Shown here in pieces: positions 32,429 through 53,612 of a DNA stretch of 64,000 nucleotides; position 1 is the stretch's first letter, and each line of letters starts with the position of its first letter. The stretch lies in assembly GCA_016699105.1 (NCBI GenBank), contig CP064960.1:136727-200726 (forward strand). Reading direction: 5' to 3'. Both the position numbers and the translations under genes were made by a program. The notes beneath the pieces are model-generated. The model worked only from the letters and a program-made list of their open reading frames with translations. It had not been told where the DNA came from and made no database searches. Source of the DNA: a bacterium. Its GTDB lineage: Bacteria > Patescibacteriota > Saccharimonadia > UBA4664.

Positions 32429-33956
<1,528 letters not shown>

Positions 33957-34968: not shown

Positions 34969-34988
34969 TTAGGACACTTTGCGCCTAA
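34969..34988. repeat. Solo copy of 20-bp palindromic-ended repeat core TTAGGACACTTTGCGCCTAA
   Basis: Same core as the four copies in the tRNA-Asn island (51793, 51993, 52946, 53554). It lies between the 3' ends of 34108..34866 and the AT-rich gene 35130..36302. Confidence 0.75.
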
Positions 34989-35129
34989 TTTTAGTGCATT
35001 AGGTATTCTGAGTCCGAGCAATTATGAGTCTAGATGACGCAGGTAATTTTCGGTGGCCGCACACTACATACTTTATGCTTACGTGCATTGCGGAGACTTA
35101 GTCTACTGCATAGATTCAAAATATATTTC

Positions 35130-36302
35130 TCACTTATCATTAAGGGGCATTGTTGAAAACTCTTTTAAATAGATCATTGATGCGTCGTATTTTTCAAATT
35201 CGTGGCTTAACTTCACAGATTGCCTTTGAGATATAATTGCTCTGTTAGTGTTAACCCACAGATCATGCGAATTTATACCTATGCAACTTAAGGGGATATC
35301 TTCGGAGTCAAGATAATAATCAATTGTCTTATGAAACCACTTTGATTTAGTCTCTAAGTCTTCTAAGTTGATTTGATGATTGAGGGCAGCATTTGGTGGT
35401 AAGTTAAGGTTTGCAATTCCTGAGACTATTCTAAAATCATTGGCATGGTAACTATACTCACCGATTTTATACACTTTAAATGGATGTAGGATTGTTTGAG
35501 GCGTAATTGTGTGTAATTGACTGTTCAATGTATCTTTAAACGAGTTAACGTAATCAGCTTCACATCCGAATATAAAATCTTTTGCATACCAAGCAATTAA
35601 ACTATTAATTTCGTTCGCTTTTTCAGCTGATAATTTCGTATATCGTACGTTTGCCAACCAACTTCCATATTTATAACTGGCAATTATTCGTCTACGTGCA
35701 ATCGTAACTTTTAATATTAACTTCTTATCTATAGGTATATACCAGCCTACAGCACGACCTTTCGAATCAAAAAATCCCGCTAAACCTCGTTCATTTGAAA
35801 TGGCCGAGATATTTTCAGGCAGAATTAGTATTTCCCACTCTGATGCCATGATCGGACACAATAGGTTCAACAGATAATCAACTCTGTTGCTATTAAGATT
35901 ACTTTCACTTAGTAATCCTAATGGCTTCAAATGCTGAACGATTGGATGGGTATTATACCTATCGTTGAAGTCTTGTCCACGGGCGAAAAGACCGCTAACA
36001 AGCGGTACCAATACATGAATAAATTCATCTAGATACAGAGGTGGCTCGTGGACCAACTTTGCAATCAATGGCGTAATTGGTGATTCGTATCCCCAATCAT
36101 CTACACTTTTCCAAACGTTAGTGTCGTCTAAGTCGTCATAAAATCGGTTTACAACACTTACCTGAGAAGCCATTTTAAGGTGTGCTGAAATTTGCCCTCG
36201 CCTGATTTGCCATACTTTTCTACTTCTAGTTTCCGTTTCTATGTCGGAAGAAAAGCGACCAATTAAAGCAGCGGGTATAATGTGTTGCTTCTTACCGCTC
36301 AT
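35130..36302 (-). CDS. AT-rich, probably horizontally acquired gene; DUF4238-like protein
   Basis: 390 aa. The N-terminus 'KKQHIIPAALIGRFS...NRFYDD' resembles the DUF4238 'HY(V/I)PQ.YL..F' start motif. Base composition is strikingly AT-rich relative to the adjacent atp genes. Confidence 0.5.
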   Translation of the reverse strand: MSGKKQHIIPAALIGRFSSDIETETRSRKVWQIRRGQISAHLKMASQVSVVNRFYDDLDDTNVWKSVDDWGYESPITPLIAKLVHEPPLYLDEFIHVLVPLVSGLFARGQDFNDRYNTHPIVQHLKPLGLLSESNLNSNRVDYLLNLLCPIMASEWEILILPENISAISNERGLAGFFDSKGRAVGWYIPIDKKLILKVTIARRRIIASYKYGSWLANVRYTKLSAEKANEINSLIAWYAKDFIFGCEADYVNSFKDTLNSQLHTITPQTILHPFKVYKIGEYSYHANDFRIVSGIANLNLPPNAALNHQINLEDLETKSKWFHKTIDYYLDSEDIPLSCIGINSHDLWVNTNRAIISQRQSVKLSHEFEKYDASMIYLKEFSTMPLNDK

Positions 36303-36341
36303 GATAATTGTATATTAGTTTATAAGGAACATTTTAGAAGA

Positions 36342-37199
36342 TTAACCGGGCGTCATGGCGTTCATGGAATTGACGATTTCTTTGATGCGATCGTCGGCCT
36401 CACCGCGGCGGGCCCGGTTGTAGTTCATGAGGAGGAGGGTTTGCAATTCTTTGGCGCGTTTTTTGGCGGCCGACATAGCGGTGAAACGCGAAGCATATTG
36501 GGCCAGACGAGATTCGAGGATGACCTGGGAGAGGGCAATTTCCATCATGACCGATTCCAAATATCTGACGACGTCGTCGACGGATGGCTCGAAGAGATAA
36601 TCGCGCGGTGAGATGATGTTTTCTTCGGCGGCTTTGGAGGTGGTGGCCAGGGCGCGTACCCGGCCGAGTAAGTCGATACGGCCGACCTCTTGAACGGTTA
36701 ACGAGATATAGCGTTGATACCAGACTGTCGGGTGGGCATAGCCTAGTAATTCGTCGACAATGGGACTCACATCGATGGTCTGATCGATATCAGGCAAGCG
36801 GAAATAACGCTTGATTTTGGCTTTGTGTTGGACGAATTGGGTAGCACCGTGGGCACCGATGACAATGAGATCGGTAGTATTGGGATCTAGATTTTCGAGG
36901 ACGGTCCGAACGATGCGCTGGTCGATATCACCCGACAGACCACCTTCGGCGGTGAGAGCCAAGAAGACATTTTGCTTTTGACGTTTGGGGCCGTTTTTGC
37001 CAGTTAATCGATCGTTGGGATCGACGCGTAGCTGGGTATATATTTGCCACAGTTCAGCGAAGAATTGCTGGCTTCGAACCACCCGGTCTTTGATTTTTCC
37101 GATGCGCATTGATGCAATCGACTCAAAGACGCCGGTTAGTTCGGAGACGGTACCAACTTGACTAGCTTCGGCTTCAATGGCGAGAGAATTTGAACTCAT
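36342..37199 (-). CDS. atpG: F1 ATP synthase gamma subunit
   Basis: 'MRIGKIKDRVVRSQQF...' and the gamma C-terminal helix 'AAKKRAKELQTLLLMNYNRARRGEADDRIKEIVN'. Confidence 0.9.
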   Translation of the reverse strand: MSSNSLAIEAEASQVGTVSELTGVFESIASMRIGKIKDRVVRSQQFFAELWQIYTQLRVDPNDRLTGKNGPKRQKQNVFLALTAEGGLSGDIDQRIVRTVLENLDPNTTDLIVIGAHGATQFVQHKAKIKRYFRLPDIDQTIDVSPIVDELLGYAHPTVWYQRYISLTVQEVGRIDLLGRVRALATTSKAAEENIISPRDYLFEPSVDDVVRYLESVMMEIALSQVILESRLAQYASRFTAMSAAKKRAKELQTLLLMNYNRARRGEADDRIKEIVNSMNAMTPG

Positions 37200-37202
37200 A
37201 GC

Positions 37203-38703
37203 TTAATTCTTGCCGTCTTTTTTAGCAGGTGTGGCTGGTGGTTGCCCGGGAGGAGGGGCTGCGGGAGCTGGCGGTGGAGGAGCGGGCGCTTGGACCGTCA
37301 CTTCGGACAGCAGCTTGGTAATTGCGCCATCCCAGTCGGATTCAGGTGTGAGGGTGGGAGCCACTTCTTTGGCTTTGCGTTTGAGGCTGTCAATGTTGAT
37401 AGTGATTTTGCCTTCAGTTTTCATGACTACACCCAGGATGAGGTCCTGCTCATTAATACTATAGACGACATCCGGAGGCTGCTTGAGGGCTTCGTAAATC
37501 TTTTTGCCCAACTCAAGATCGGCTTTTGACTCAATGGCTAGTTCTGAGCCGAAGTGACTAAATTCGGCGGCTTGGCGATAGGCGGCGAGCTTTTTGAACA
37601 GGGCGGCGGTCAAGGCTTTTTGACGCTTGTTCTGACCAACACCACCGACACGGGAGACGCTCAAACCGACGGAGATAGCGGGTCTGATGCCGGCCCGGAA
37701 GGCCTCGGTATCAAAGATGAGCTGGCCGTCGGTGATGGACATGATGGCGGTTGGAAGTGGTGCGGTAATGTCGTTATTGGGCGTTAGCACCACGGGGATT
37801 GCGGCCAAGGTAGCGCCGTTTTTGGCGAGGCGGCCGGCACGTTCCAGCAACGAAGAGTGAGCGTAAAACATATCGCCTGGATACGAGGCCCGGCCGGGTG
37901 AGGTTTTGAGCAACAGTGATAACTCGCGATAAACTTTGGCGTGATTGGATAAATCGTCATAAAATGATGACGCAGTCTTTGCCGCTATTCCATAAGTATT
38001 CGGCGACGGTGACGCCGACGTACGGTGCTAAATAACTTTGGGTGAGCGAATCAAAGACACTGGCGACAATCACCACACTGTAGGCCATAGCTCCAGACTT
38101 GTTGAGCTTGGCGATGAGGCTGTCGACGTCGGCTTTGCGCTTGGAGATAAGGACATGGATTACCAGCCGGCCGGTGCCAGCCTGAGCGAGCGTTAGTTGC
38201 ATCGTAATAGCTGATTTACCAACCTTATTGTCACCAAGAATGGCAATACGTTGGCCTTTGACGAGCGGGAAAAGCTGGTCGGCGATGGCGACACCGGTGG
38301 AAAGCGGGTCTTTGAGCTCTTGACGTTCGATAATACCGGGAGCTACCTTGAACACCGGGTCATAGCGGGAAAATGTTACGGGTCCTTTGCCATCCAGGGG
38401 TTGACCGGTGACAGATAAAACTCGACCGATAACAGCCTCGCCGACACCAGTGACTAATTCGGGAGCTTCAAGCACGACGAGGGTACCAATGGCGATGGTT
38501 TCAGCCGTCATATTAAGTACCATAACCGTGTCGAGATGGACTTCACGCACCATACCTTGGTGGCCGTTATCGAAGTAAACTAACGCTCCAACGGCAATAT
38601 CACCGAGTCCGCGAACCGTCACAATAAACCGGTCGACTGCGATGACTTCGCCGGAGGCATTGCCAGCCGCTACTAGTTTGGCAAATTTGGGATTATCAAA
38701 CAC
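37203..38703 (-). CDS. atpA: F1 ATP synthase alpha subunit (one apparent frameshift in a T-run at ~37940)
   Basis: ORFs 37957..38703 and 37203..37913 have a seamless alpha-subunit join: 'GKDCVII[Y]DDLSNHAKVYRELSLLLKTSPGR(E)AYPGDMFYAHSSLLERAG'. Walker A 'GDNKVGKS'. Confidence 0.9.
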
Positions 38704-39178
38704 GATGAATAATTCCTGCTAATTTGGAGGCTCCGCCCATGAGCTGCTGTTTCCAAGTGAAATCGTAAACATGATTGGGCGTACGAATGACGATGCCACC
38801 GCCGAGGTTGCGGTCAGCGACGAACGAAATGAGCGCCCGGGAGCTAATATTTGTATGAAACCACGAAACTAATACCCGGCGTTGTTCATGATTGGGCATA
38901 GCCGCCAATTTGACATGGATCTCAGGCAGTTTAAGGGCGCGCAGTTCGGCCAATAAGCCTTCCAATGTCTCGAGCGTAGGGGTTTGTGAGCCAAAATGGT
39001 TACGGATAACTAACTCGGTTTCAGCACTGTGATCTGGTTCGGGCTGAGAAGCGGCGGCAGCTCCCACTTTGCGCTGGATGCGGGTTTGGCGATACCAGTC
39101 GGTATATTGTTCCAAGTCGTAGATGACCGACTCAAGCAGGTGTGGACTATAAACTTCAGGGGGCAGCTCATACGCCAT
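38696..39178 (-). CDS. atpH: F-type ATP synthase delta (OSCP) subunit, divergent
   Basis: Sits between atpF and atpA. The C-terminus 'LGGGIVIRTPNHVYD' is delta-like. Confidence 0.6.
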   Translation of the reverse strand: MAYELPPEVYSPHLLESVIYDLEQYTDWYRQTRIQRKVGAAAASQPEPDHSAETELVIRNHFGSQTPTLETLEGLLAELRALKLPEIHVKLAAMPNHEQRRVLVSWFHTNISSRALISFVADRNLGGGIVIRTPNHVYDFTWKQQLMGGASKLAGIIHRV

Positions 39179-39767
39179 CGGTAAGATCCTTTCGGATATC
39201 AGCTTTATGCGCTTCGAGGCTCGTCAGGATAAACTGCATTTGTGCACCCAGATCCACGCCAGAACCAAGGGCTTCAGAAATGTAACTCGAGATTACGTCG
39301 CCCATTTTGGCATCAAATTTCTCAACGAGATGCTGACGCTCGGTCGCCAATTCTTGTTCCATACCTTGGCGGAGTTCGATGCGTTGATGCTCAACCGCTT
39401 CTCTAATTTGGTTCATAGCCTGTATGGCTACCTGACGGACTTCTTCAAGAGTCTTCTGGTAGGCTTCGAGTTCTTCTTCGATGACTTTGGTAGTCAGGCG
39501 AGAGACCTGCTCAGTTAGTTGTTTGGAGGTGCCATGGAGGTCGGCGCCAAAGGCAGCCACCGATTTAGTGATCTCGGTGTCATAGGCGGCGATGAGTCGC
39601 GTTTGGAGCTGATCGGCATTTGGTTGAGAAATGGATACTTTGGGCGCGGTATGTTGGCTACGGAGAAGGTCTTGATGGAGCTTTTGCAATCTTAGACTCT
39701 GTACAACCACAACAATACTCAAGATTAGGATGAGTACGGCTAGACTAATTAATACGATTATATCCAT
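39168..39767 (-). CDS. atpF: F-type ATP synthase subunit b
   Basis: Single N-terminal TM 'IIVLISLAVLILILSIVVVV' followed by a long charged coiled coil. Operon position fits subunit b. Confidence 0.65.
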   Translation of the reverse strand: MDIIVLISLAVLILILSIVVVVQSLRLQKLHQDLLRSQHTAPKVSISQPNADQLQTRLIAAYDTEITKSVAAFGADLHGTSKQLTEQVSRLTTKVIEEELEAYQKTLEEVRQVAIQAMNQIREAVEHQRIELRQGMEQELATERQHLVEKFDAKMGDVISSYISEALGSGVDLGAQMQFILTSLEAHKADIRKDLTDGV

Positions 39768-39774
39768 AGCGTTT

Positions 39775-40653
39775 TTACCTCACGATCACCAAATACATTG
39801 CTACTCCGGCTGATATCAAAATACCAAATACTATTGTCATGACTTGAAGTAGACCTCTTAGGACCGAACTTCGAGACAAGGGGTTGCGTCCAATCGAAAT
39901 AATACTGTTCCGGACAGCGGCATATAGTAAGACGGTGACGCAAACTAAAGCAACTATCAAAATAAAGCTGGCTAGAATAATCCGTATAGGCGAAACGGCT
40001 TTGCCGGCTAGATTGTTTGAAAGTGATTGCAGCCAGTTCGGAATTGCATAGGGTTGTTTACCTTCGGTTGCAGTGTACGCGGATACTGCAATAACAACTG
40101 GTATCTGTCCAATAGTTACGTCCCTTTTCCCTGTTGATTCTTCGATTTCGCGCTTAGTGGTGCCTTCGTTGTCGGCATTGAAGTCAGCCTGGGCGGTACC
40201 GATAACACGAGTGGATTCAGTGCCGACCTTTTGACCGACTCCAGCGATCGAAGATATGGTTATGTAGTCGCCCAAATGTATGTCTCCGCCTGCATTTGAA
40301 ACCAACAAGGTCACCGTACCAGTCGTACCTACCTGAACTTGCTTGCTCGATCCTCCAGATAGTGATATAGAAGCCGAAGAAGGCGGAACGACTACGCCAA
40401 AAAGTCGGCTCACGTTATCTGGAGTCGATACCACTACTTTGCCCGCTCCAGATTCATCAAGGGAGACCATACTCCCAGTGGCAATGTCGGCATCGACAGC
40501 GTAGCCCTGAGACAAGCTGGCGCTAACCGGTGCGGCGGCCAGAGCCACCACCAGATATACAGCGGATACCAGCGCTTTTAGAATAATCATACTATCTTTG
40601 ATTATAACGGTAGCGCAAGCATTATGGGAGTGGGTGGACACTGAGAATGCCAA
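39775..40653 (-). CDS. Hypothetical membrane protein (secreted beta-rich domain + two C-terminal TM helices) occupying the position where atpB/atpE would be expected
   Basis: It lacks the subunit-a R-L-F-G-N motif and also the subunit-c G-x-G-x-G motif and acidic residue. It lies upstream of atpF. Confidence 0.45.
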   Translation of the reverse strand: MAFSVSTHSHNACATVIIKDSMIILKALVSAVYLVVALAAAPVSASLSQGYAVDADIATGSMVSLDESGAGKVVVSTPDNVSRLFGVVVPPSSASISLSGGSSKQVQVGTTGTVTLLVSNAGGDIHLGDYITISSIAGVGQKVGTESTRVIGTAQADFNADNEGTTKREIEESTGKRDVTIGQIPVVIAVSAYTATEGKQPYAIPNWLQSLSNNLAGKAVSPIRIILASFILIVALVCVTVLLYAAVRNSIISIGRNPLSRSSVLRGLLQVMTIVFGILISAGVAMYLVIVR

Positions 40654-40681
40654 TTGTTATGCTGGCACTAGCACTAATGAG

Positions 40682-41212
40682 ATGGAGTTAATTTTTAGTA
40701 TGGATGTTCGCCGACAAGCTAACGACAATTCTTTTTCAGAACCGCAGCAAACCGCTCCTCGATCCCATACTGGACGCGGTGGCCGCGGAGTTTTACCCAA
40801 AGTCCTGATGGGCTTGGCCGTATTATTAGCTTTATCAGCCTTAGCTTGGCTGATCGTCATGGGCGTGGGTTACTTCAACGCCGGCAGTTCAGTCAAAGCT
40901 AAGCAGTTCCAGGCAGTCTTTTTGACCAATGGCCAAGTTTACTTCGGCAAAGTTAAAAATGTGAACTCTGACTACGTCAAGTTGGAAGAGATTTACTACT
41001 TACAGGTTCAACAAACTGTCCAGCCCAAAGACGGCAAGGCAACCGATACTTCAAACCAAGAAGTTTCACTCGCCAAACTCGGTGGTGAATTGCACGGTCC
41101 TGAAGATGTCATGTACGTCAACCGTGACCAGGTATTGTTCTGGGAAAACCTCAAAGAAGATGGCAAAGTAGCCAAAGCTATTTCTGACTACAAAGCGAGC
41201 GGCGATAAATAA
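40682..41212 (+). CDS. Hypothetical membrane-anchored protein
   Basis: TM 'LMGLAVLLALSALAWLIVMGV'. No recognisable domain. Start taken at the internal ATG. Confidence 0.4.
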   Translation: MELIFSMDVRRQANDNSFSEPQQTAPRSHTGRGGRGVLPKVLMGLAVLLALSALAWLIVMGVGYFNAGSSVKAKQFQAVFLTNGQVYFGKVKNVNSDYVKLEEIYYLQVQQTVQPKDGKATDTSNQEVSLAKLGGELHGPEDVMYVNRDQVLFWENLKEDGKVAKAISDYKASGDK

Positions 41213-41375
41213 GACCACTCCAGGGAGTTACGGGGCGAGAAAGAGCCGCTTATCACAAGCGGCTCTTTTGTCGGAATGAGAAAATCGATAGAGGCATTAA
41301 TATTTAATCGTTCTCAAACATAAATACCACCTCATATGCGAGGTGGTATTTATGATATCTTTTGGCGTAACGGGA

Positions 41376-41685
41376 TTACGAGGCTAAGTCGTAATCGCGC
41401 TGGCCACCACCGAAACGGCGGTCAGAACCTTCGGCCTTGGGACGAGCTTCCGAAATGGTCAGCTTGCGGCCGTCCAGGTCAGCTTGATCAGTCTGAGCAA
41501 TAGCAGCGTCAGCAGCAGCATCATCGGCCATCTGGACAAAGCCAAAGCCCTTTGAGCGCTGAGTTGCGCGGTCCATGATGACATCCGCGCTCACAACTTC
41601 ACCAAATTTGGCGAAGAATGCTTGTAGATCTTCACTAGTTGTAGTATACGGCAGGTTGCCGACGAACAGTTTTTTGGCCACGAAT
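41376..41685 (-). CDS. RRM-domain RNA-binding protein
   Basis: RNP2 'LFVGNLPY' and RNP1 'KGFGFVQM'. C-terminal Gly/Arg tail. The start is probably the GTG preceding 'AKKLFVGNL'. Confidence 0.75.
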
Positions 41686-41749
41686 TGGGCTCCACTTATC
41701 TTGTTCCGCCTTCGGAGCGGTTTAATCTTTACCGCCGCATAATAACCTA

Positions 41750-42361
41750 TTAAGAGGCTTCTGTAAATGCCTCCGCCCGATACCAGGGCGTAAATGTTAG
41801 TTGAATGCAAGCCAAAACTAGATAGAGTTGGGCGGCCATCCCAAATACCGCGAGCAGTGCCCACACCACACTCATGTATGATTGCTCGGTGCTAAACCGG
41901 CCGAAAAGGTTGAACCAATACATTATTCCCACCTGCAAGAGTGCCAGGTTGGCCAATAACGCTCCCGCGGCGACGGCTTTGATGCCTAAGTTTCGGACTG
42001 AATTTGAGCCTGGGCCGCGGTTGGTGTAAGCGGTTTTGAGCGTGACCTCGTTGCGGGCTTCAATGAGAGCATTGTAGCCGGCCCAGCAAATCAGGTAGGC
42101 CACCAGGCCGACAGCCGCCCAAAATGCCATTACGGCTATCTGGGATATGATGGGCGATTGCAGCCAGCCATCGAAAAAGGCATGAAACTGGTTATTGACG
42201 GCGTTGACAGCGTCGGAGTTGATTTCCATCATCTCGAGAATACCCTTGGAATGGGCCAGTACCAACATGACGCTACTGGTGACAAAGGCAATGGCGTACT
42301 GCGCCGGCGTCGGTATTATGATCGCTAAGAATCTTTGTTGAAATGGTAATGGTGCACTCAT
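41750..42361 (-). CDS. Hypothetical polytopic membrane protein
   Basis: Multiple hydrophobic helices. Confidence 0.45.
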   Translation of the reverse strand: MSAPLPFQQRFLAIIIPTPAQYAIAFVTSSVMLVLAHSKGILEMMEINSDAVNAVNNQFHAFFDGWLQSPIISQIAVMAFWAAVGLVAYLICWAGYNALIEARNEVTLKTAYTNRGPGSNSVRNLGIKAVAAGALLANLALLQVGIMYWFNLFGRFSTEQSYMSVVWALLAVFGMAAQLYLVLACIQLTFTPWYRAEAFTEAS

Positions 42362-42900: not shown

Positions 42901-42963
42901 CTGCCAGCGTACTGGTAATTAGGCATTCCTGTAAAGCTGCTGGGCTGTTAGAATGAGGCAACT

Positions 42964-44299: not shown

Positions 44300-44442
44300 G
44301 TCGTCTATTGTAGCGCATCTATAATACAACTCGAGACATAATTATTGACTTATTGGGCTTTAAATTATAAAATAGGCTTAGTTATCACCGTGAGATAACG
44401 GGTTTAAAAGAACCTTCACATACCTCCGAAGGGAGTTTAATC

Positions 44443-46845
44443 ATGCGTCTTTGGCGAATGATTGCAGCTGTCGGTGTGGCGGCGTTCAGCTTTGTAACTG
44501 CACCGCTACCCGCAGTCGTCACTGAAACTCAGTGCAGCACCACGATCGTCGACGGTGCCAATCTGTTTAAGGGTGACATTGCCGGCATCGAAGCGGCTGC
44601 ACAGCAATTGCGCACACTCGTGCCGAATACTGTCATCATAGTGCGTACCTACCCGATGATCAAGAACACCCTGCGCGATACGCTTCAATCATCACTATCA
44701 GACTGTTCGCAGTGGCGGGATAGTGCTGGTCGACAAGTGGCAAACTCGATGTTTTTCATGATTTCGCTCAACTCACAGACGACTGGTAAACGCGATCTAG
44801 CAATCTATGTCGGTGATACCTTTGGTCCTGGTCTGGTTGGCAGTGGCAGTGACACGCGTATTCGCGAAAATATCATGGCCCCACGTTTCCGCCAAGGCCA
44901 ATTTACATTGGGTGTAGCCGAGGCGATGCGTGAGTCATTCCGGGTATTGAGTCCGGTGACCTCACCAACCGCGACCCGGTCGGAGCCAACGCCAGAGATC
45001 GAGATTCCAGTGTACCCGCCGATCACGATCACGCCGGATCCACCTCGTGAACCTTACGACTGGTCGTGGCTTGGGACTGTCGGCAAGTGGCTACTCATCA
45101 TTCTAGTGGCCGTCATCGTGATTGTGGCAATTTCGATTTTCGCACCCATGATCTGGGGAGGCATTACTGATTGGCTAGCCGCGAACAAACGTGAACGCGC
45201 GCTTTTGGATAATGCCAATAAGCTGGTCGTAAATATCGAAAGGTTACTGCCGCGAGCTGAACACCTGCAATCAAGTGAACATCCTGGCGCTGCCGGATGG
45301 ACGAACCGACTGCAGGTCGTGCAAGCCGAATTGCAGGTCGCCGGAGTTGAAGTAACTAAGCTGTCCGCCAAAATGGATACCTGGATGGCTGAAACGGCGG
45401 AGATTGCGCAGGAACTGGATGGCTTTGACGCCAAGGTGCAGCAGGTCAACCAAATGGTAACCACCACTCGTGGCCGTTTCAGTGTGGCAGCAACCTTGCT
45501 CCAGAACATGATCACGAGCGGTTGGATGCCGAATGACTTGTCTGACCAGCTCGACACTATTCAAGAGCGGTTGGCGGCCGTAAATTCGAACCACGAAGCT
45601 GGGCGCAATATCGAGGCCGTAATCCTGCTTGAGCAAGCTGACGTTAAAATCAGTGAGCTTCTGCCCGCCCTCGAAGCACTCAAGCTCCGGCTTGATACAG
45701 CCAATTCCAAGCTCGAAGACCTGACAAAATTGGGAACTCGAGCGTTGGCAGATATCACAGCTGCGACCGAAACCATCACGCGTTTGAGCAAGACCTACGC
45801 CCCGGCGTCTTGGGAAAAGCTCAAGGGTAATGGTGCCAAAGCCACGGCACTGCATGAGGACGCGTTGCTCCAAATCAAGACGGCTAGAGAATGCCTCGGA
45901 CAACGTCACGATCTCGACGCTGCCGAAGCTGCCATTGCCCAATCCGATAAGCAGTTGCGTGAAGTAATTTCGCAGATGCGTTCAGTGAAAACGCTGGCCA
46001 CTTCGCTCGATGATGTGGCTATGTCTTTGCCGGGCATGGTGCAAGCTGCTTTAGCAACGTGGCAGAAAGCCGTGGATGGTGAGCTCACCTGGGATAAAGA
46101 TGTCGATGATTCGTTCAAATCGGCTCTACCAGAGATTCGCAAATCCCTGCAGCAAGCCGAAGAGGTGTGCCAGATTAGCCCCCTTAACCCAATCGCAGCC
46201 CGGGATGCCATCCTGGCAGCAGAGCGGTTGGCCGATGAGGCTTACAAGGACATCAAGGGCGAGTTTGATGCCGCCGAACATGAACGGCGTCGGGCCCAAG
46301 ATGAAGCCAAGGCGGCTGAAGCTGAAGTGGCGGATGCCCGGGAATATCTGCAGGACCATGCTAGTCACGTGACCTCAGATGACCAGTCGGAGCTCAATGC
46401 TGCCCACAAGGCCATCAAGGAGCTCCGTCAAATGGCGTCAAATGGCGCTTCACCGGCCGACATCATCGCGGCGGCACAGCACGTCCAGTCAATCGCCCAA
46501 CGGGCATACTCGCCGGTTCGAGCCAAGGTGCTCCGAATTCAGCGCGAACGCGAAGAGCGTGAGGCCGCCGAACGGCAGAGGCGCGAGCGGGAAGCTGAGC
46601 TCGAACGTCAGCGCATTGCTGCTCTCCAAGCGGCAGCTCAAGCTGAGGCCGACCGTCAAGAGGCTGAGCGTCGACGCACCGAGCAAGCAAGGCGCGATCG
46701 CGAAGAACGAGAGCGTCAGCAATCCTACAGCACGCCTAGTTACCCGAATGTGTCCATTCCCGGTAACGGCGATGGCACCTGGGGTGGAGCATCCACCTGG
46801 ACGGGCAATGGCGACGGCACCAATGGCAGTAGCAGTACTTGGTGA
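44443..46845 (+). CDS. Large membrane protein: signal peptide + TPM (DUF477-like) domain + TM + ~500-aa coiled coil + E/R-rich and Gly-rich tail
   Basis: TPM-like 'IVDGANLFKGDIAGIEAAAQQLRTLVPNTVIIVRTYPM...DLAIYVGDTFGPGL'. TM at 'WLLIILVAVIVIVAISIFAPMIWGGI'. Tail 'ERREREAELERQRIAALQAAAQAEADRQEAERRRTEQARRDREERERQ...GNGDGTWGGASTWTGNGDGTNGSSSTW'. Confidence 0.6.
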   Translation: MRLWRMIAAVGVAAFSFVTAPLPAVVTETQCSTTIVDGANLFKGDIAGIEAAAQQLRTLVPNTVIIVRTYPMIKNTLRDTLQSSLSDCSQWRDSAGRQVANSMFFMISLNSQTTGKRDLAIYVGDTFGPGLVGSGSDTRIRENIMAPRFRQGQFTLGVAEAMRESFRVLSPVTSPTATRSEPTPEIEIPVYPPITITPDPPREPYDWSWLGTVGKWLLIILVAVIVIVAISIFAPMIWGGITDWLAANKRERALLDNANKLVVNIERLLPRAEHLQSSEHPGAAGWTNRLQVVQAELQVAGVEVTKLSAKMDTWMAETAEIAQELDGFDAKVQQVNQMVTTTRGRFSVAATLLQNMITSGWMPNDLSDQLDTIQERLAAVNSNHEAGRNIEAVILLEQADVKISELLPALEALKLRLDTANSKLEDLTKLGTRALADITAATETITRLSKTYAPASWEKLKGNGAKATALHEDALLQIKTARECLGQRHDLDAAEAAIAQSDKQLREVISQMRSVKTLATSLDDVAMSLPGMVQAALATWQKAVDGELTWDKDVDDSFKSALPEIRKSLQQAEEVCQISPLNPIAARDAILAAERLADEAYKDIKGEFDAAEHERRRAQDEAKAAEAEVADAREYLQDHASHVTSDDQSELNAAHKAIKELRQMASNGASPADIIAAAQHVQSIAQRAYSPVRAKVLRIQREREEREAAERQRREREAELERQRIAALQAAAQAEADRQEAERRRTEQARRDREERERQQSYSTPSYPNVSIPGNGDGTWGGASTWTGNGDGTNGSSSTW

Positions 46846-46922
46846 TTGTTCGCTACACACTACATCGGGGCAGAGACTATTCAACTCAGATGGGTTGAAC
46901 CTCTGCTCCGATGGGGTACTTT

Positions 46923-47965
46923 TTATTTAAGCGGTTTTTTTTTCGTCTGGGCGGGCAGTTTGACGATAAAAGTGCTGCCAGAACCGGGCTTGGATTGAAT
47001 CTGGATGGTGCCGTGGTGCAAATCGACAATGCGTTTGGCGATAGATAGACCGAGGCCGTGGCCGCCGGGCTGGTCGCCGGATGTCCGGCTACGCGAAGTA
47101 TCGGCCCGATAGAACCGGTCGAAAATGTGGGGACGATCAACTTCGGTAATCCCCGGCCTTCATCAGAGACAGCGAGCCGTACCTGATGCCCAGATAACGT
47201 ACTCGTTACTTTGACCATCCCACCGTCTGGAGAATACTTGATGGCGTTGTCGAGCAATATGGCGACTAATTCGACGAGACTGTCTTTGTCACCGGTGATT
47301 TGATGGTGGCCGGGTACTAATTCGAGTTCAATACCGGCCGCGGCGACGGCTGGTGCAAAACGCTCGGCAGCATCATTGATGATGTCGGTAGCTGGAGTGG
47401 CTTTAATGACACTGGGATCGAGACCGTTTTCGGACCGGGCTGGCCGGAGCAGACCCGCTGACAAGGCTTCGAGTTTGGCGATCTCCTCAAGGTTTGAGGC
47501 CAGTAAATTTCGGGCTTCGGGGGCCGACAATTGTTTGTCACGCAGTGCAACTTCGATTTCAGAGCGCATAGCCGTTAGGGGTGTCCGCAATTCGTGACTG
47601 GCATCGGAGGTAAACCGACCTTGTAGCTCCATGGCTTCTTGGATCGGTTGGAGAGTGCGCCGAGCTAAATAATAAGAAACACTGGCGCCTAGAAGCAGCA
47701 TGCCACTATTGAGGAGGAGGAGCCAGTTGATGAGCCGGTCCTGAGCGGCGTCGAGCTCGGTATCTAGGTAATTGTTGACGGCTTGGCGGCGCTCATCGAA
47801 AACATCGGGTAAATTTAGGCGATTGAGGACGCCGCGTTGCTGATGGACATTTTCGGTGATCTGCCGCATTGAAACCTGATAGAGGGCTACACTAAACAAT
47901 CCGGAGACTATCATGATGAGAGCCAGGTACCAGAGCGTTAATTTAGCGGCAGCAGAGCGGAACAT
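46923..47965 (-). CDS. Sensor histidine kinase (apparent frameshift in a C-run at ~47165)
   Basis: H-box 'SHELRTPLTAMRSEIE'. The corrected C-terminus 'DEG[P]GITEVDRPHIFDRFYRADTSRSRTSGDQPGGHGLGLSIAKRIVDLHHGTIQIQSKPGSGSTFIVKLP' carries the N, G1 and G2 boxes. Confidence 0.8.
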
Positions 47966-47968
47966 AAT

Positions 47969-48673
47969 TTAATTATCGTCGACGCCGAGCTTATAACCAA
48001 ACCCGCGGGCGGTATGGATCAATTCAGGTCCACTAAACGGCCGGTCGACTTTGGCGCGTAAGTAGCCAATATAAACCTCGAGGGTGTTTGGCAGAATGTC
48101 AGCGTCATAGTCCCAGACGTGACCAATGATATTGGATTTCGATAAAATGCGGTTTTGGTTGCGCAGCAAATATTCGAGGAGCGCATATTCCCGCTGGCTG
48201 AGCGTCAGTTTGCGACCAGCTCGTTTGACCTCGTACGTGGCCGTGTCCATGGTGAGATCGTTACAGGTGAGTACATTTGAGCCCACGTCTTGGGGACGTC
48301 GTAGTAGGGCCCGGATGCGAGCGAGGAGCTCTTCGAAGGCAAACGGTTTGACTAGATAATCGTCGGCACCCGCATTAAGACCACTGACCCGATCGGCGAC
48401 CTTGTCTTTGGCGGTGAGCAAAATCACGGGTGTACGAATGTTTTCAGCGCGGACTTCTTTGATAATATCGACACCATCGAGCAAGCCAGGCAGCATCCGA
48501 TCTAGAACGATCATGTCGTATTCACCAGTAAGCGCGGAGCTCAAACCTTCATCACCATCGTAAACAACGTCCACCGCGTAGGCTTCTTGCTCCAAGCCCC
48601 GCTTGATGGCACCGGCAATCTTATGTTCATCTTCGACAACGAGAATTCTCATATTACACCTAAGTATACGCAA
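47969..48673 (-). CDS. OmpR-family response regulator
   Basis: Receiver 'ILVVEDEHKI..MIVLDRMLPG' and winged helix 'LSQREYALLEYLLRN'. Confidence 0.9.
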   Translation of the reverse strand: MRILRCNMRILVVEDEHKIAGAIKRGLEQEAYAVDVVYDGDEGLSSALTGEYDMIVLDRMLPGLLDGVDIIKEVRAENIRTPVILLTAKDKVADRVSGLNAGADDYLVKPFAFEELLARIRALLRRPQDVGSNVLTCNDLTMDTATYEVKRAGRKLTLSQREYALLEYLLRNQNRILSKSNIIGHVWDYDADILPNTLEVYIGYLRAKVDRPFSGPELIHTARGFGYKLGVDDN

Positions 48674-48705
48674 TAATTGCCTGAGAAGTATCTGAATTTG
48701 GCTCG

Positions 48706-49995
48706 CTAGACCAAGTAACTATAGAGGAGATCGCCCTGATCTAGCCGGCGATAACTGACGCCGAGGCGGTCGAGGCGGTCGAGCAGCTTAGCATAATCGG
48801 TTTGGATGGCTACTTCGATGCCGACCAGGGCGGCTCCGCGGTCTTTGTTGGTTTTCTTGATGTATTCGAACCGCGTTATGTCGTCGGATTCGCCCAAAGC
48901 TTGGTCGACAAATTGCCGCAGTTGTCCGGGTTTTTGTTCGAATTCCACCAACAAATAATGTTTGAGGCCTTCATAGGCCAGCGACTTTTCGAGGATTTCC
49001 GGATAGCGCAGCACATCATTATTGCCACCGGATATCACCACTACCACCGTTTGACCTCCAATCTGGCCGGCGAGCTGATCAAGGGCCGATGTAGCCAAAG
49101 CACCAGCTGGTTCGGCGATGATGCCGTCGTTTTGATATAGCTCGATCATGGTGGTGCAGGTTTTGCCTTCCGGCACGGTGTAAACCTGATCAACCAGCGA
49201 TTGGGCGTATTCGAATGTGAGCCGGCCAACTGTATTGACGGCGGCGCCATCGACAAACTTGTCGATATGCGTCAGCGTAACGCGAGTTCCCTGGTCGAGC
49301 GACCGTTGCATAGCCGGAGCGCCAGCGGGCTCTACGCCAATAAGCCGCAATTGGGGATGGAGTGGCCGCAGATATGTTCCGATGCCGCTGATAAGTCCGC
49401 CCCCACCGATAGGTGCAACCACCAAATCTGGCACCCGATCGAGCTTGGCCAACTGCTCATGGATCTCGAGTCCCACTGTTCCCTGGCCAGCGATGACGCG
49501 CGGATCGTCAAACGGATGTACAAAGACCGCGCCGGAGACTGCCACTTGTTTGAGTGCGGCCGCTAACGATTCATCAAATGTTTTGCCAACGAGTCTGAGC
49601 TCGACCCAATCGCCGCCGAAATGCCGAATGCGGGAGACTTTTTGGGGAGGCGTTCCCGAAGGTATAAAAATAACCGTTTTAATCTGGAGTTTGGCGGCCG
49701 CCAGAGCCACACCTTGGGCATGGTTACCGGCGCTGGCGGTCACCGCTCCACGGGCGCGTTCGTCGTCGGTTAATCCGGCCATCAGATTGAGCGCACCCCG
49801 GATTTTGTATGATCGCACCGTTTGCTGGTCTTCGCGCTTAAGATAGATGTGAGCGCCATAGCGCCCACTCAACCGTTCACTGTATTCGAGCGGCGTTCGC
49901 TTGACCACGGTTCCAGCTAGGCGCCGGGCAGCAGCGGTAATGTCAGCTGGCATGACGGCTACTTGTTTGGTTGGTTTGGTGACGGTAGTGGGCAT
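48706..49995 (-). CDS. ilvA: Threonine dehydratase (biosynthetic, with C-terminal regulatory domain)
   Basis: PLP site 'SAGNHAQGVALAA' and glycine loop 'GGGGLISG'. Confidence 0.9.
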   Translation of the reverse strand: MPTTVTKPTKQVAVMPADITAAARRLAGTVVKRTPLEYSERLSGRYGAHIYLKREDQQTVRSYKIRGALNLMAGLTDDERARGAVTASAGNHAQGVALAAAKLQIKTVIFIPSGTPPQKVSRIRHFGGDWVELRLVGKTFDESLAAALKQVAVSGAVFVHPFDDPRVIAGQGTVGLEIHEQLAKLDRVPDLVVAPIGGGGLISGIGTYLRPLHPQLRLIGVEPAGAPAMQRSLDQGTRVTLTHIDKFVDGAAVNTVGRLTFEYAQSLVDQVYTVPEGKTCTTMIELYQNDGIIAEPAGALATSALDQLAGQIGGQTVVVVISGGNNDVLRYPEILEKSLAYEGLKHYLLVEFEQKPGQLRQFVDQALGESDDITRFEYIKKTNKDRGAALVGIEVAIQTDYAKLLDRLDRLGVSYRRLDQGDLLYSYLV

Positions 49996-50195
49996 TGGAT
50001 CCTCCTGATACGAAAAACCTCCCGGTGGGGGAGGCTAGTTTCCGTGATTAGCTTGTGGTGTTTACCAGACTACGCTAAACCGGCCTCCCGAGGGGGTGGC
50101 AGATAATGGCACAAATAATGGTGCGCGCGTAGGTCATACGAAAGAGCGTAACAGGCATATGCGCAGAGTTCAACCTTTTCGTATAAGATGTATAA

Positions 50196-51431
50196 ATGTG
50201 TACAATATTGAGTATGAAACGGACGTATTTTACGCGACCCAAAGATGTCTGGCGATTAGCTGTGGTACTGGTAGCGGCTAGTCTCCTGGTGGTGGGTGTG
50301 TGGTGGGCACGACGTGAGGGTCTGGCACTGCCGCTGATTTCGCCGAGCCCGATGGCGTCTCCCCTAGCCTCAAGTCCGACGCCGGTACCCTCGCCAGTGG
50401 CAATTGCGGCGACAGCCTGGGTGCAAGGCTTGGTGGTGCCGTGGGGATTGGTATTTACCAGCGATACTCGAGCCTTGGTGACCGAACGTGCTGGCCGGGT
50501 ACGCATTATTGATGAAGGTAAATTACAGTCGGCTCCCCTGCTGACGTTGAGTGATGTGTCGAGTGTGAGTGAAGAAGGCTTGATGGGCATCGCCAAAGAT
50601 CCGGCTTATGCCACCAATAAGCTCGTATATATGTGCTATGCCTATAAGTCTGGTGGTGCCTACCGCGACAAAGTGGTGCGCTTCGAAGATCGTGGTACCA
50701 GCGCCGGGCCGTTTACAACGATTATCGACGGCATACCGGCGGCAGCCAATCATGCTGGATGTCGGCTCGGCTTCGGCCCAGCTGATGGCAAACTCTACAT
50801 TACGACCGGCGATGCCAGCCAGCGGGCTCAAGCTCAGGTATTGAGTAGTCTCGGAGGTAAGATTTTGCGGGTCAATCCCGACGGCAGTATTCCCGCCGAC
50901 AATCCATATACCGGCTCCCCTGTTTGGACGTTGGGTCACCGCAACCCGCAAGGCATTGCCTGGCAACCAGGAACCGGTAACTTATACGCCAGTGAACACG
51001 GCCCATCAGGCTGGGATGGCAGCCCCGGCGGCGATGAAGTTAACTTGATCACCCGAGGCGCCAATTATGGCTGGCCCGTGGTCAGTCACGACAAAACAGA
51101 TCCCAAATATGCGAGCCCTTTGCGGGTGTATACGCCGGCAATTGCTCCTGGTGGTATCACGTTTTACGATGCCGATTTGATTCCGCAGCTGAAAGGCCAT
51201 TTGCTGGTCACCGGGCTGGCTGGTACTGGCCTATATGACCTCGTGGTTGGTACTAATGGCAGCGTGACGAGCTCGACGAAAATGCCCGAGCTCAATGTAG
51301 GCCGCTTGCGTGACGTGGTCACCGGTCCAGATGGCGCGCTATATATACTGACGTCGAATCGTGATGGGCGCGGTACCGTCAGAGCCGGCGATGATACCAT
51401 CTACCGGTTGGTACCATTGACCGGGCGCTAA
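50196..51431 (+). CDS. PQQ-dependent soluble glucose/sorbosone dehydrogenase-like beta-propeller protein
   Basis: 'GLMGIAKDPAYATNKLVYMCY', 'LYITTGDA', 'RVNPDGSIPADNP..TLGHRNPQGIAW' and 'GGDEVNLITRGANYGWP'. Confidence 0.8.
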   Translation: MCTILSMKRTYFTRPKDVWRLAVVLVAASLLVVGVWWARREGLALPLISPSPMASPLASSPTPVPSPVAIAATAWVQGLVVPWGLVFTSDTRALVTERAGRVRIIDEGKLQSAPLLTLSDVSSVSEEGLMGIAKDPAYATNKLVYMCYAYKSGGAYRDKVVRFEDRGTSAGPFTTIIDGIPAAANHAGCRLGFGPADGKLYITTGDASQRAQAQVLSSLGGKILRVNPDGSIPADNPYTGSPVWTLGHRNPQGIAWQPGTGNLYASEHGPSGWDGSPGGDEVNLITRGANYGWPVVSHDKTDPKYASPLRVYTPAIAPGGITFYDADLIPQLKGHLLVTGLAGTGLYDLVVGTNGSVTSSTKMPELNVGRLRDVVTGPDGALYILTSNRDGRGTVRAGDDTIYRLVPLTGR

Positions 51432-51464
51432 GGCCTGGTTATAATCTGGGGCGTACCACCATAT

Positions 51465-51539
51465 TCCGGAGTAGCTCAGTGGTAGAGCAGTTCGCTGTTA
51501 ACGAATTGGTCGTCGGTTCGAGCCCGACCTCCGGAGCCA
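51465..51539 (+). tRNA. tRNA-Asn (GTT)
   Basis: tccggagtagctcagtggtagagcagttcgctGTTaacgaattggtcgtcggttcgagcccgacctccggagcca. Perfect 7-bp acceptor with encoded CCA. Confidence 0.9.
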
Positions 51540-51689
51540 TTGAAAATGCGTCAGCTTAGTCTGGCGCTTTTTCAATAGTTTTGACGAGGGGAACCGAACC
51601 GGTACGGTTCGGCGGACGAGGAGCGCAGGAAACGGACAAGCTGGCTTGGCTGATTTCCGAGCACCGCAGGGAGGTGGCGCTAGCCACTG

Positions 51690-51706
51690 CCCGACCTCCG
51701 GAGCCA
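51690..51706 (+). repeat. 17-bp direct repeat of the tRNA-Asn 3' end (cccgacctccggagcca); att-site-like scar
   Basis: Identical to 51523–51539. The upstream 'ggcgctagccactgccc' (51671–51689) recurs at ~52088–52107. Confidence 0.7.
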
Positions 51707-51741
51707 GGAATTATTTGCCCGAGCAGACTTGCGGTAGTAGG

Positions 51742-52050
51742 TCTGTTTTTGTTTTGGGATTCGCGCAAATGCTACCGAGTTCATATAGCAAATTAGGACA
51801 CTTTGCGCCTAATGTTAGGCTGACGGACTTATAATGTGAATATGAAGGTCAACAAGCAAAGGCACGAGGCCAACCGCATGCCCAAAAACCCATCGCTCGA
51901 TGGCAAAATGCTCGAGGAAATACAGCGTCGGGGATTGCCGGTTCCACACTACACGCTTGGTGAGTGAGACAAATGTCATGTGGGTAAAAAATAGGCGCAA
52001 AGTGTCCTAATTTAGCTCGAAACGACCCGAGATTTTTCGCCAAAATACCT
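51742..52050. repeat. Repeat-bounded cassette A: L unit (51742–51812, core TTAGGACACTTTGCGCCTAA at 51793) ... R unit (core inverted at ~51993–52012 plus conserved flank to 52050)
   Basis: The L and R cores are inverted copies ~200 bp apart. The R flank 'tttagctcgaaacgacccgagatttttcgccaaaatacc' is ~97% identical to the R flank at 53574–53612. The L flank 'tttttgttttRGtattcgcgcaaat' is shared with 52890–52915. Confidence 0.7.
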
Positions 52051-52333
52051 GCCATGCGTAGGGTGTTTTTCAACTGTTGGCGGGGGATGGCGCTAGCCAC
52101 TGCCCAAGAAGCATTTGCGCCTGATATGATTGAGTTATGTTTTTCAATGCCCACACTTATTACTCGATCAAACGGAATAGTGATGTTGCCGAACCGATGC
52201 GTATTGTAGGTGCGCTTCTAGCGGATAGTGCACTTACGGGAGTGATTAGCTGGACCGACCTGCATGATAAAACTGCTATCAAGGACTTCTCTGAGAGCTT
52301 GGGAAAGATGAAGCGCTGTTAGGCAACGGCCTA

Positions 52334-52759
52334 ATGGACCACTACGAGCTGGACTTGCGGAGTCATGACACATTCCAAAACGACGCTGGATACGCATTTT
52401 CGCACCAGACGCAGCGACTCAGAGAGCTGGTGGCGCAGGCTTGCGGATTTGATACCCCTGAACAAGCTCGCGGTATAGCACATAACTTCATCGAGGCAGG
52501 TGTAGATGTTAATTTGCTACGAAGTGACGGACACGTTCAGGGCCTGGTGCGCGAGTCTCTGAGCGCGGTTGATATTGAGCTTATTTCGAAATATGTAGCC
52601 GACTTTTTAAAGGCCAATCCAGCTGATACAAGAACTAAGCTAACTGCATATATAGATTTGCTCGTGAAATACGATTTAAGGGATCTCGACGAATGGGTGA
52701 AACTGTGGGTCGAAATAATTTCCCTGCTTTTAAAGAAAAAGCCGATGATCATGCCATAA
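52334..52759 (+). CDS. Hypothetical protein (island cargo)
   Basis: 141-aa ORF between cassette A and cassette B. No recognisable domain. Confidence 0.4.
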   Translation: MDHYELDLRSHDTFQNDAGYAFSHQTQRLRELVAQACGFDTPEQARGIAHNFIEAGVDVNLLRSDGHVQGLVRESLSAVDIELISKYVADFLKANPADTRTKLTAYIDLLVKYDLRDLDEWVKLWVEIISLLLKKKPMIMP

Positions 52760-52889
52760 GAGAGGTGCTTCAATTAGCTGTTGAGTTGACGGCTAAGGAT
52801 TACCAAAAGGTTATCGCCCCGTATTACCGCTAGTAGCCTGCCGCAAGCTCAGCCGCCCAGTCCTGCGCACATACCCGCAGGGCTGGGCG

Positions 52890-53612
52890 AGACCGATTTT
52901 TGTTTTAGTATTCGCGCAAATTAGTCCAACTTATTATCGGTAAAATTAGGGCACTTTGCGCCTAATTCTTGGTGCGTTTGATATGATGACAATATGTTGC
53001 GCTTAATTGTCTTATCTGGTTTACCGGGCTCGGGCAAAAGTACCGTTGCCAAGGCTATTGCCAGCGAGCTACACCTGCCAATCTACTCAGTCGACCCCAT
53101 GGAATCGGCGATTATTAAAGCAGGTTTTGATCGTAGTTTTAAGACGGGGTTGGCGGCCTATTTGGTTGCGGAAACCCTGGCGGATGAACAACTAAGTCTT
53201 GGTCAGACGGTAATAATTGATGCCGCAAATTATGTCCGAGAGGCTCAGGAAATGTGGATCAAATTGGCAAATAAACATGGTGCCGAGCTCAAGGTCATAG
53301 CATGCATTTGTGCAAATGAGACTCAACATCAAGAGCGGATAGCTAAGCGAGTTCGAGCACTTCATGGTATTCCCGAGATAACGTGGTCGGATGTTGAAAA
53401 ACGAAAAGTTGAGAGCACACCCTGGCAAACTGAGCACGTGGTACTTGATACAAATCGGGCATTTAATGCCACAATGCACGAGGCTCTGAAATACATTTCG
53501 GCCTAAACTATGCCAATACGATTTGTCTGACGGTCGTATAATGTGCAAAATATTTAGGCGCAAAGTGTCCTAATTTAGCTCGAAACGACCCGAGATTTTT
53601 CGCCAAAATACC
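52890..53612. mobile_element. Repeat-bounded cassette B: L unit (core TTAGGGCACTTTGCGCCTAA at 52946–52965) – single P-loop kinase gene – R unit (core inverted 53554–53573 plus flank)
   Basis: Inverted 20-bp cores bracket a ~610-bp segment containing only ORF 52994..53506. The architecture resembles a minimal TIR-bounded element or gene cassette. No transposase is present. Confidence 0.5.
52994..53506 (+). CDS. P-loop NTPase / kinase (AAA_33/zeta-toxin/PNK-like family)
   Basis: Walker A 'LSGLPGSGKSTVAKA' and Walker B-like 'TVIIDAANY'. About 170 aa. Confidence 0.65.
   Translation: MLRLIVLSGLPGSGKSTVAKAIASELHLPIYSVDPMESAIIKAGFDRSFKTGLAAYLVAETLADEQLSLGQTVIIDAANYVREAQEMWIKLANKHGAELKVIACICANETQHQERIAKRVRALHGIPEITWSDVEKRKVESTPWQTEHVVLDTNRAFNATMHEALKYISA

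Follow-up and report, generated by a model that had tools for sequence, protein, structure and literature searches.

The genomes of Saccharibacteria and other Patescibacteria measure about 1 Mb and contain few recognisable mobile elements, yet strains differ in small accessory genes. Repetitive extragenic palindromic (REP) sequences, together with bacterial interspersed mosaic elements (BIMEs) and REP doublets forming hairpins (REPINs), are short imperfect palindromic hairpins outside genes, often after stop codons, which occur singly or in inverted pairs, bear a GTAG or GTGG head and go with RAYT transposases. Integron attC sites are 57 to 141 nt long, lie in direct orientation and accompany promoterless cassettes, IntI and attI. 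The pdif sites of the Acinetobacter dif modules are 28 bp long (an 11-bp XerC arm, a 6-bp centre and an 11-bp XerD arm), and the inner parts of the arms are palindromic and conserved (PMC6449649). Mobile insertion cassettes (MICs) and miniature inverted-repeat transposable elements (MITEs) are units bounded by inverted repeats that lack a transposase, for example MIC231 and the qnrD MICs (PMC3913671, PMC6542083). In the minimal mobile elements of Neisseria, strain-specific genes sit between conserved neighbours and are transferred through transformation and homologous recombination (PMC3787668, PMC3082526). Here we describe a short palindromic repeat, the core, in a 64,000-nt stretch of the saccharibacterial contig CP064960.1 (positions 136,727 to 200,726), which is called the window below. 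Its five copies lie at two sites, the atpG-atpD spacer and the region behind a tRNA-Asn gene. According to a reading that we hold with about even credence, the cores are boundary inverted repeats of small nonautonomous accessory-gene cassettes and are recognised in trans by a recombinase or transposase.

Copies, specificity and fold of the core

A search of the window allowing up to 3 mismatches returned five matches to the 20-mer TTAGGRCACTTTGCGCCTAA, whose consensus can also be written TTAGGRCACTTTGCGCCTA(A). We named the copy at the atp site E and those behind tRNA-Asn A, B, C and D in their order (Table 1). Matches were rare in shuffled sequence, with a mean of 0.01 per shuffle and none of 100 shuffles reaching five. 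The initial annotation had listed copies at these five places and none elsewhere in the window. The mismatch search bore out the five copies, one of which, given as about 51993, starts at 51991. The absence of others was confirmed by a covariance model applied without filters to the full length of the window, which recovered the same five copies and no degenerate one, and by half-motif searches of the window, which gave no additional copy. No copy was found in about 60 kb of conserved sequence of the window, nor in 8.8 kb beyond it. In the five-copy alignment the shared unit is AAATTAGGRCACTTTGCGCCTAA, optionally extended by TTT, which makes an imperfect palindrome of 23 to 26 bp. Conservation runs 3 nt past the 20-mer on one side, and the flanks 5' of the AAATTAGGRCACTTTGCGCCTAA reading are of two kinds among the five copies. 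All five copies are intergenic after correction of a frameshift in the OmdA gene.

No exact match to the core was found in 185,579 GTDB representative genomes or in viral contigs, and plasmid and phage collections gave no match. Six matches in JGI metagenomes all had unrelated flanks and were taken as chance. The atp loci of 31 relatives held no core with up to 4 mismatches and none by the covariance model. The palindromic repeat is so far known from only one species of ultra-small Saccharibacteria. The closest public genomes all belonged to Candidatus Saccharimonadia (Saccharibacteria, TM7), and the nearest GTDB representative has an AtpG that is 95% identical, with DNA only about 80% identical. 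Conspecific contigs were obtained via exact-protein lookups. The core-containing layout around C and D recurs in independent assemblies from at least nine other samples, and an assembly artefact was rejected because these assemblies reproduce the same structure.

Each core is dyad symmetric, with arms AAATTAGG and CCTAATTT around a conserved asymmetric centre, and therefore looks like a site bound by a protein dimer. The layout is 5-10-5 (or 8-10-8), with the palindrome outermost (TTAGG...CCTAA) and a conserved 10-nt centre. On the strand reading TTAGGCGCAAAGTGTCCTAA, the core forms a stem of 5+3 bp with a pyrimidine bulge and a loop of AAA, and the position of the A/G variant is the bulge of this hairpin. 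The fold energy of the 26-mer is -8.1 kcal/mol on this strand versus -5.1 kcal/mol on the opposite one, far weaker than that of the real terminators of the clade (-10 to -25 kcal/mol). Three to five U follow the hairpin, and a simple terminator pattern scan flags one copy only. Because the fold is weak yet the sequence is near-invariant, with inverted arms and a conserved asymmetric centre, the core is suggestive of a site recognised by a protein and not of a purely thermodynamic role. Membership in a known RNA family was rejected, as only tRNAs reached the threshold in Rfam 15 and nothing appeared at the cores even at E values up to 5. The sequence was also inspected with a CRISPR array, a sigma-54 promoter, a CIRCE/HrcA box, dif, integron attC, IS200/IS605 ends and a DNA uptake sequence in mind, and each was dropped because its spacing, length, orientation or copy distribution did not fit. 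A hairpin AAAAAATAGGCGGAAACTGCCCTATTCGCGC at 12122-12154 of L008, in the atpG-atpD spacer of a different genus, has the same stem, bulge and AAA loop as the core, with one C-G to G-C swap. It has 5 mismatches to the core, a level reached 4 times in 491 kb, and is a lead only, not significant by sequence. Two-sided pair changes in the stem come only from this uncertain look-alike.

The main rival explanation starts from this fold. The core would be a REP-like dispersed extragenic palindrome, perhaps a recombination hot spot and a weak terminator (in both directions) or insulator, with no role of its own in inserting its neighbours, which we regard as improbable but as deserving a hearing. An imperfect palindrome of 20 to 26 nt with its bulge and loop on one strand and a variant on the bulge agrees with this explanation, as does the finding that all five copies lie between two transcription units, with a stop codon 23 to 141 nt ahead of three of them on the strand that folds better. 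The core has A-rich and T-rich runs beside it, and single copies are found as well as inverted pairs, as in REP and BIME. Copy D is also the sole hairpin between the convergent kinase and OmdA genes, where a sister species has a GC-rich terminator. However, no conserved intergenic spacer of the window contains a copy; the copy number appears low, and the copies are clustered in variable DNA. The distance within the pairs is 198 and 608 nt rather than tens of nucleotides, the copies begin AAATTAGG and lack a GTAG- or GTGG-type 5' motif, the hairpin is weak for a terminator, and no Y1/RAYT gene was seen in the window.

Inverted core pairs and strain haplotypes behind tRNA-Asn

Core orientation behind tRNA-Asn alternates + - + - from A to D. 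A and B form an inverted pair with 27-nt arms that are 93% complementary and 170 nt apart, and C and D form a second one with 28-nt arms that are 89% complementary and 578 nt apart. Each pair encloses a complete promoter-plus-ORF (open reading frame) unit, of 224 bp and 634 bp, respectively. The two units have a common layout of core, 16 to 17 nt, -10 box, 6 nt, ATG, ORF, stop, 23 to 47 nt and inverted core. In the unit M1, between A and B, the ATG at 51842 opens a 41-codon ORF that runs to 51967, 23 nt before core B. In the unit between C and D, the -10 box has a TG extension and the stop of the 170-aa kinase ORF precedes core D by 47 nt. The kinase is NCBI protein QQR52736.1, whose closest other homologues share only about 61% identity with it. 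The cargo genes had no informative result in PADLOC or NCBIfam, and exact-protein lookups for five window proteins (including those of the 141-aa, 171-aa and GSDH ORFs) gave no matches.

The interiors of M1 and the kinase unit are unrelated; outside the cores the two units resemble each other, in block 1 on the left and in the 3' end of OmdA on the right. On the left inner side, similarity between the units breaks within 1 nt of the core, a break point at the core edge that a REP-like repeat does not predict. Block 1 is a 25-nt sequence (TTTTTGTTTTrGkATTCGCGCAAAT) that is 92% identical between the A and C sides, and the spacer from block 1 to the core is unrelated between them. That inverted cores bracket promoter-plus-ORF units, with unrelated cargo lying between related flanks, is one reason for reading the cores as cassette boundaries. 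The 7-mer TTTGCGC, a part of the core, occurs three more times in a 1.8-kb stretch of the island (51769, 52114 and 52920), twice in block 1 and once right before the -10 box of the 232-aa gene, with about 0.5 occurrences expected from the rest of the window. There are two copies of the motif CTGACGGnCnTATAATGTG, one at 51820-51838 just inside core A, reading away from it, and one at 53527-53545 just inside core D, reading through core D and antisense to OmdA. An origin of M1 as a deletion derivative of the kinase unit was rejected, since the two have only CTGACGGnCnTATAATGTG in common, at a non-equivalent position.

In the three cassette genes (51830-51844, 52122-52139 and 52979-52996), a -10 box, TATAAT or TGATATGAT, stands exactly 6 nt before the ATG with no ribosome-binding site, and this arrangement suggests that their mRNAs are leaderless. 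The promoter geometry also bears on an operator role, in which a regulator dimer would bind the palindrome overlapping the -35 region of the cassette promoters and the inverted copy might serve DNA looping. In A and C, about 39 nt separate the centre of the core from the predicted start downstream of it, the 3' end of the core is as far from the -10 box as given in Table 1, and neither promoter has a good -35 box; copy E has TATTCT 15 nt downstream; and a related motif, TTTGCGCC, lies just before the -10 box of the 232-aa gene. In contrast, B and D face the 3' ends of genes without matching promoter geometry, so that the role fits only A, C and perhaps E. Half-sites 15 bp apart centre to centre are unusual for a simple dimer, and no regulator gene is linked to the copies. 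Strain differences at the core edge and the copy near the end of the atp insertion are left unexplained as well, and we consider an operator very unlikely.

Two haplotypes exist in the species, both within one sample (ERZ27275549). Haplotype W (the window, L068 and L069) reads tRNA, att remnant, A-M1-B, 232-aa gene, C-kinase-D and OmdA, and haplotype L (L039 and ten more contigs) reads tRNA, an unrelated 203-aa gene, C-kinase-D and OmdA. Left of the kinase unit the two haplotypes have unrelated DNA, up to a point 7 nt ahead of core C from which they are homologous. Every contig, and each of the four kinase alleles, has the kinase unit complete with its two cores and in one and the same orientation; its left neighbours form two unrelated contexts, and its right neighbour is always OmdA in the contigs seen. 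The 628 bp of the kinase unit (52946-53573) are 4 to 7% divergent among the four alleles in a mosaic pattern, compared with 1 to 3% for the flanks (versus L039, L068 and L069), which indicates frequent homologous recombination and a local hot spot. An invertible segment (phase variation) found no support, as the orientation is identical in all assembled contigs from at least nine samples. No empty site for the A-M1-B or the C-kinase-D unit was found among the contigs compared. In the sister species (OmdA 81% identical), a syntenic island has an ordinary GC-rich terminator and then a MOSC gene after OmdA, with no core anywhere in its 8.4 kb.

Several genes that are split or run on in the window are intact in the conspecific contigs, namely, atpA (499 aa), atpD (488 aa), the 232-aa gene and OmdA (104 to 105 aa). 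The stretches concerned are 37203-38703, 32676-33893, 52137-52833, 53590-53594 and 53915-54406. Such a pattern resembles that left by homopolymer errors in a long-read assembly, and it bears on how the flanks of the repeat are read. In OmdA, a T-run is one T short in the window (5 versus 6, 53590-53594), and the ORF reads on to 53508. With six T's, the tail reads GILAK[K/R]SRVVSS-stop, which matches the conserved C-terminus of OmdA/YdeI proteins from several phyla, and this flank differs from that of conspecific contigs by four synonymous changes and one Lys/Arg change. Because the corrected right flank is the C-terminal coding sequence of OmdA, core D starts at the OmdA stop codon. A coding repeat was also considered, since the frame AGILAKNLGSFRAKLGHFAP is open through B and D, and was rejected; it is a different frame of the right flank that encodes the true C-terminus of OmdA, with synonymous differences (L064, L069) and conservation across phyla speaking against AGILAKNLGSFRAKLGHFAP as a shared peptide.

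The same 44- to 48-nt flank lies beyond both B and D. Since copy B carries the duplicated 3' coding end of OmdA, it evidently arose by segmental duplication of core D with the last ~15 OmdA codons. The far end of the duplicate joins a second tRNA-terminator-like sequence near a short AAAA..ACC similarity. This origin of copy B, and the upstream block that A and C have in common, would also suit an absence of function, with the cores being leftovers of one or two local duplication or inversion events and the atp copy a chance carry-over. However, identity over 24 to 29 nt between unrelated DNA 17 kb apart is not expected by chance. The spacer from block 1 to the core is unrelated in A and C although both blocks are 92 to 96% conserved, which is unlike a plain recent duplication, and the cores are unchanged across kinase alleles differing at 4 to 7% of sites (a sample too small for significance). 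We judge it highly improbable that the cores lack a function.

Table 1. Coordinates of the core copies and of neighbouring features in the window
Feature	Position	Strand	Remarks
Core copy E	34966..34991; 20-mer 34969-34988	+	AAATTAGGACACTTTGCGCCTAATTT; atp site
Core copy A	51790..51813; 20-mer 51793-51812	+	3' end 17 nt upstream of TATAAT (51830-51835)
Core copy B	51988..52013; 20-mer 51991-52010	-	One mismatch (...CCTAT); inverted partner of A
Core copy C	52943..52966; 20-mer 52946-52965	+	G variant; 3' end 16 nt upstream of TATGAT (52982-52987)
Core copy D	53551..53576; 20-mer 53554-53573	-	Inverted partner of C; between convergent kinase and OmdA genes
Interior of unit M1	51813..51990	+	178 bp; unique sequence; also in L068
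Kinase cargo of C/D unit	52994..53506	+	170-aa P-loop kinase (AAA_33); start looks leaderless
Upstream block 1, copy 1	51746..51770	+	TTTTTGTTTTGGGATTCGCGCAAAT; 19 nt before core A
Upstream block 1, copy 2	52897..52921	+	21 nt before core C
232-aa gene, no assigned function	52137..52833	+	Intact in L068 and L069, frameshift-split in window; own TGATATGAT promoter
OmdA/YdeI-family gene	53575..53891	-	Native stop TAA overlaps AAA of copy D
Duplicated OmdA 3' coding end at copy B	52011..52054	-	Matches 53574-53617
tRNA-Asn (GTT)	51465..51539	+	
Integrase-type insertion remnant	51540..51706	+	18-nt direct repeat of tRNA 3' end at 51689-51706, then GGAATTATTT
Second decayed element remnant	52048..52105	+	tRNA-terminator-like hairpin, haplotype L type, and 24-nt repeat GGGGGATGGCGCTAGCCACTGCCC
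Strain-variable insertion, atpG-atpD spacer	34928..36340		1,413 bp; empty-site versus filled contigs; BLAST break points 36341/34927
Cargo of atp insertion, 390-aa ORF	35130..36302	-	Weak DUF4238 match, below Pfam cut-off

The insertion between atpG and atpD and other insertion events

Copy E lies in an insertion with a GC content of 0.369, versus 0.515 for the window. The insertion is filled in the window and in six other conspecific contigs, with flank identity of 96 to 99%; the comparison included L044 to L048 as filled sites and L049, L053, L054, L055 and L057 as empty ones. Empty strains read TAAT, directly followed by AGTC, at the insertion point, and the segment is cleanly missing. In the five empty contigs, atpG-TAA-T is followed directly by AGTCAAAGGGCC, a bidirectional terminator and a 272-aa gene. 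Copy E is 41 nt inside the atpD-side (left) end and about 1.35 kb from the other end; the chance that a random position lies as near to an end is about 8%. A TTTTGGATTCG motif, which recalls block 1, lies between copy E and the atpD-side end. A second, decayed core at the far end was sought, and the idea was dropped when none was found. Between the atp site and the tRNA-Asn region, only the 24- to 29-nt core is significantly similar.

The initial annotation had tied the repeat to accessory DNA, and the strain comparisons uphold this: E lies in a segment that is missing in conspecifics, A and B sit on DNA absent from haplotype L, and C and D bracket the kinase. To judge from these alignments, the core is part of the variable DNA and not of a chromosomal target. 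A second reason for reading the cores as cassette boundaries is that haplotype divergence starts at a core edge, that copy E is subterminal in a presence/absence segment and that conserved spacers contain no core.

The atpG-atpD spacer (33894-36341 in the window; near position 10850 in loci L008 to L037) is a hot spot of unrelated single-gene insertions across Saccharimonadia, and its length in relatives ranges from an overlap of the genes up to about 8 kb. Its cargo in related genomes includes PfkB, GtrA, a histidine phosphatase, an NTPase and a pair of AAA_5 and VWA genes, with no mobility genes. A 252-aa ORF at 34108-34866 is kept in this spacer in L008 and in conspecific strains. The spacer with a different single gene per genome and no mobility genes, like the mosaic kinase alleles, resembles the minimal mobile elements of Neisseria. 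In contrast, that model needs no special repeat; it accounts for the spread of the genes and not for the conserved palindrome.

Separate insertion events left traces in the same regions. The 18-nt 3' end of tRNA-Asn is found at 51522 and again, 167 bp downstream, at 51689, and GGAATTATTT, which stands directly after the tRNA gene in the sister species (L070), is the ancestral flank. Because the repeat of the tRNA end is followed by this ancestral flank, the segment from 51540 to 51706 is the remnant of an integrase-type insertion. The two remnants at tRNA-Asn (51522-51706 and 52048-52105) have in common a 24-nt arm, GGGrGrTGGCGCTAGCCACTGCCC, and no integrase gene is left; neither remnant is similar to the core. 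Three other strain-variable segments are without a core: 53915-54406, which is a frameshifted P-loop kinase gene, 29990-30173 and, only in L049, 574 bp beside atpC (9632-10205 of L049, versus 32155-32160 in the window), where that contig has an extra 118-aa gene after atpC.

The initial annotation had proposed a common insertion mechanism for the two sites, and this held in part. The repeat does lie in variable DNA at both sites, but it is not the insertion junction at the atp site. In addition, the integrase-type event at tRNA-Asn is separate, copy B came by duplication, and the three variable segments just named have no copy.

Two further features of the window were observed outside these sites. 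Directly after the island, at 57678-61745, lies a carotenoid-type cluster (an amine-oxidase/phytoene-desaturase-like gene, phytoene synthase, lycopene cyclase and polyprenyl synthetase), which is unexpected given the strongly reduced metabolism of the organism. A stretch of 2.5 kb at 26898-29427 contains three tRNA-Met (CAT) genes, on both strands, which surround genes resembling those for bactofilin and DivIC.

The core as a possible handle for accessory genes

We infer recognition by an enzyme, and any mobility, from the anatomy, strain polymorphisms and break points observed here. In the proposed mechanism, an enzyme encoded elsewhere in the genome would recognise the cores, and inverted core pairs would delimit the piece that is exchanged or inserted. 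After arrival, the units would have been reshuffled through segmental duplication and have spread among strains via homologous recombination. We narrowly favour a site-specific recombinase over a DDE transposase, since the cores are dyad symmetric around a conserved centre and target duplications are lacking; the DDE transposase is the alternative because the geometry resembles that of an insertion sequence.

Several observations weigh against cassettes bounded by cores. No direct repeat (target-site duplication) flanks either full unit, and the ends of the atp insertion have neither a target duplication nor an inverted repeat, nor anything in common. At that site, no second or decayed core stands at the far end, and the ends of the presence/absence segment fall 41 nt outside the sole core and not at the repeat. 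The origin of copy B by duplication with OmdA codons is a further point on this side, as is the finding that no recombinase or transposase is among the larger ORFs of the window. The kinase unit had no other orientation or location in contigs from at least nine samples, which give no direct sign of inversion, excision or transposition, and homologous recombination could move whole segments alone. The sequence base, about 73 kb of this species with five copies at two sites, is also a small sample. On balance, the repeat is a plausible but unproven handle for moving cassettes.

The likeness to described systems is partial in each case. As in the Acinetobacter dif modules, small accessory modules are bounded by short alternating sites with two inverted arms and an asymmetric centre, no recombinase is linked, and target duplications are lacking. 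Modules that recur beside different neighbours may have a counterpart here in the kinase unit, the only one found in two left-hand contexts. However, the core is not dif-like, since its palindrome is outermost and its centre conserved, and it is chromosomal, in a Patescibacterium host. Integron cassettes are similar in that single genes are accompanied by a short structured site with an extrahelical base, and TTAGG/CCTAA resembles the core-site motif. In contrast to integron cassettes, the sites here are inverted and 20 to 26 nt long, the two motifs are in reversed order, the units have their own -10 boxes, and no IntI or attI was found. The cores might be the recombination sites of a chromosomal cassette-exchange system in a Patescibacterium, a functional analogue of the Acinetobacter dif modules or of integron cassettes with an unrelated site, in which inverted sites would let a recombinase encoded elsewhere exchange one small promoter-plus-gene module for another. 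This more specific proposal is tentative, and we hold it to be rather unlikely.

The comparison with MICs and MITEs is similarly divided. Arms of 27 to 28 nt bound a 224-bp unit and a 634-bp unit with a passenger gene, and, as in insertion sequences, the promoter lies directly beside the left repeat and the stop codon shortly before the right one. However, target-site duplications and a common interior are lacking, each repeat is itself palindromic, and the related outer flanks of the two units are not a product of independent transposition. No parent insertion sequence with these ends is known, and none lies in the window.

If the core were only a REP-like repeat, it would be an ordinary feature of one species. 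Either way, the strain comparisons supply exact boundaries for experiments or read-level analysis. Should the palindrome serve as a recognition site by which exchangeable cassettes are delimited, strain variation in accessory genes would have a concrete, testable mechanism, and the 23-mer would be a simple marker for variable cargo in related genomes. An exchange system of this kind, if it exists, would be a cheap way for an ultra-small genome to vary its accessory genes.

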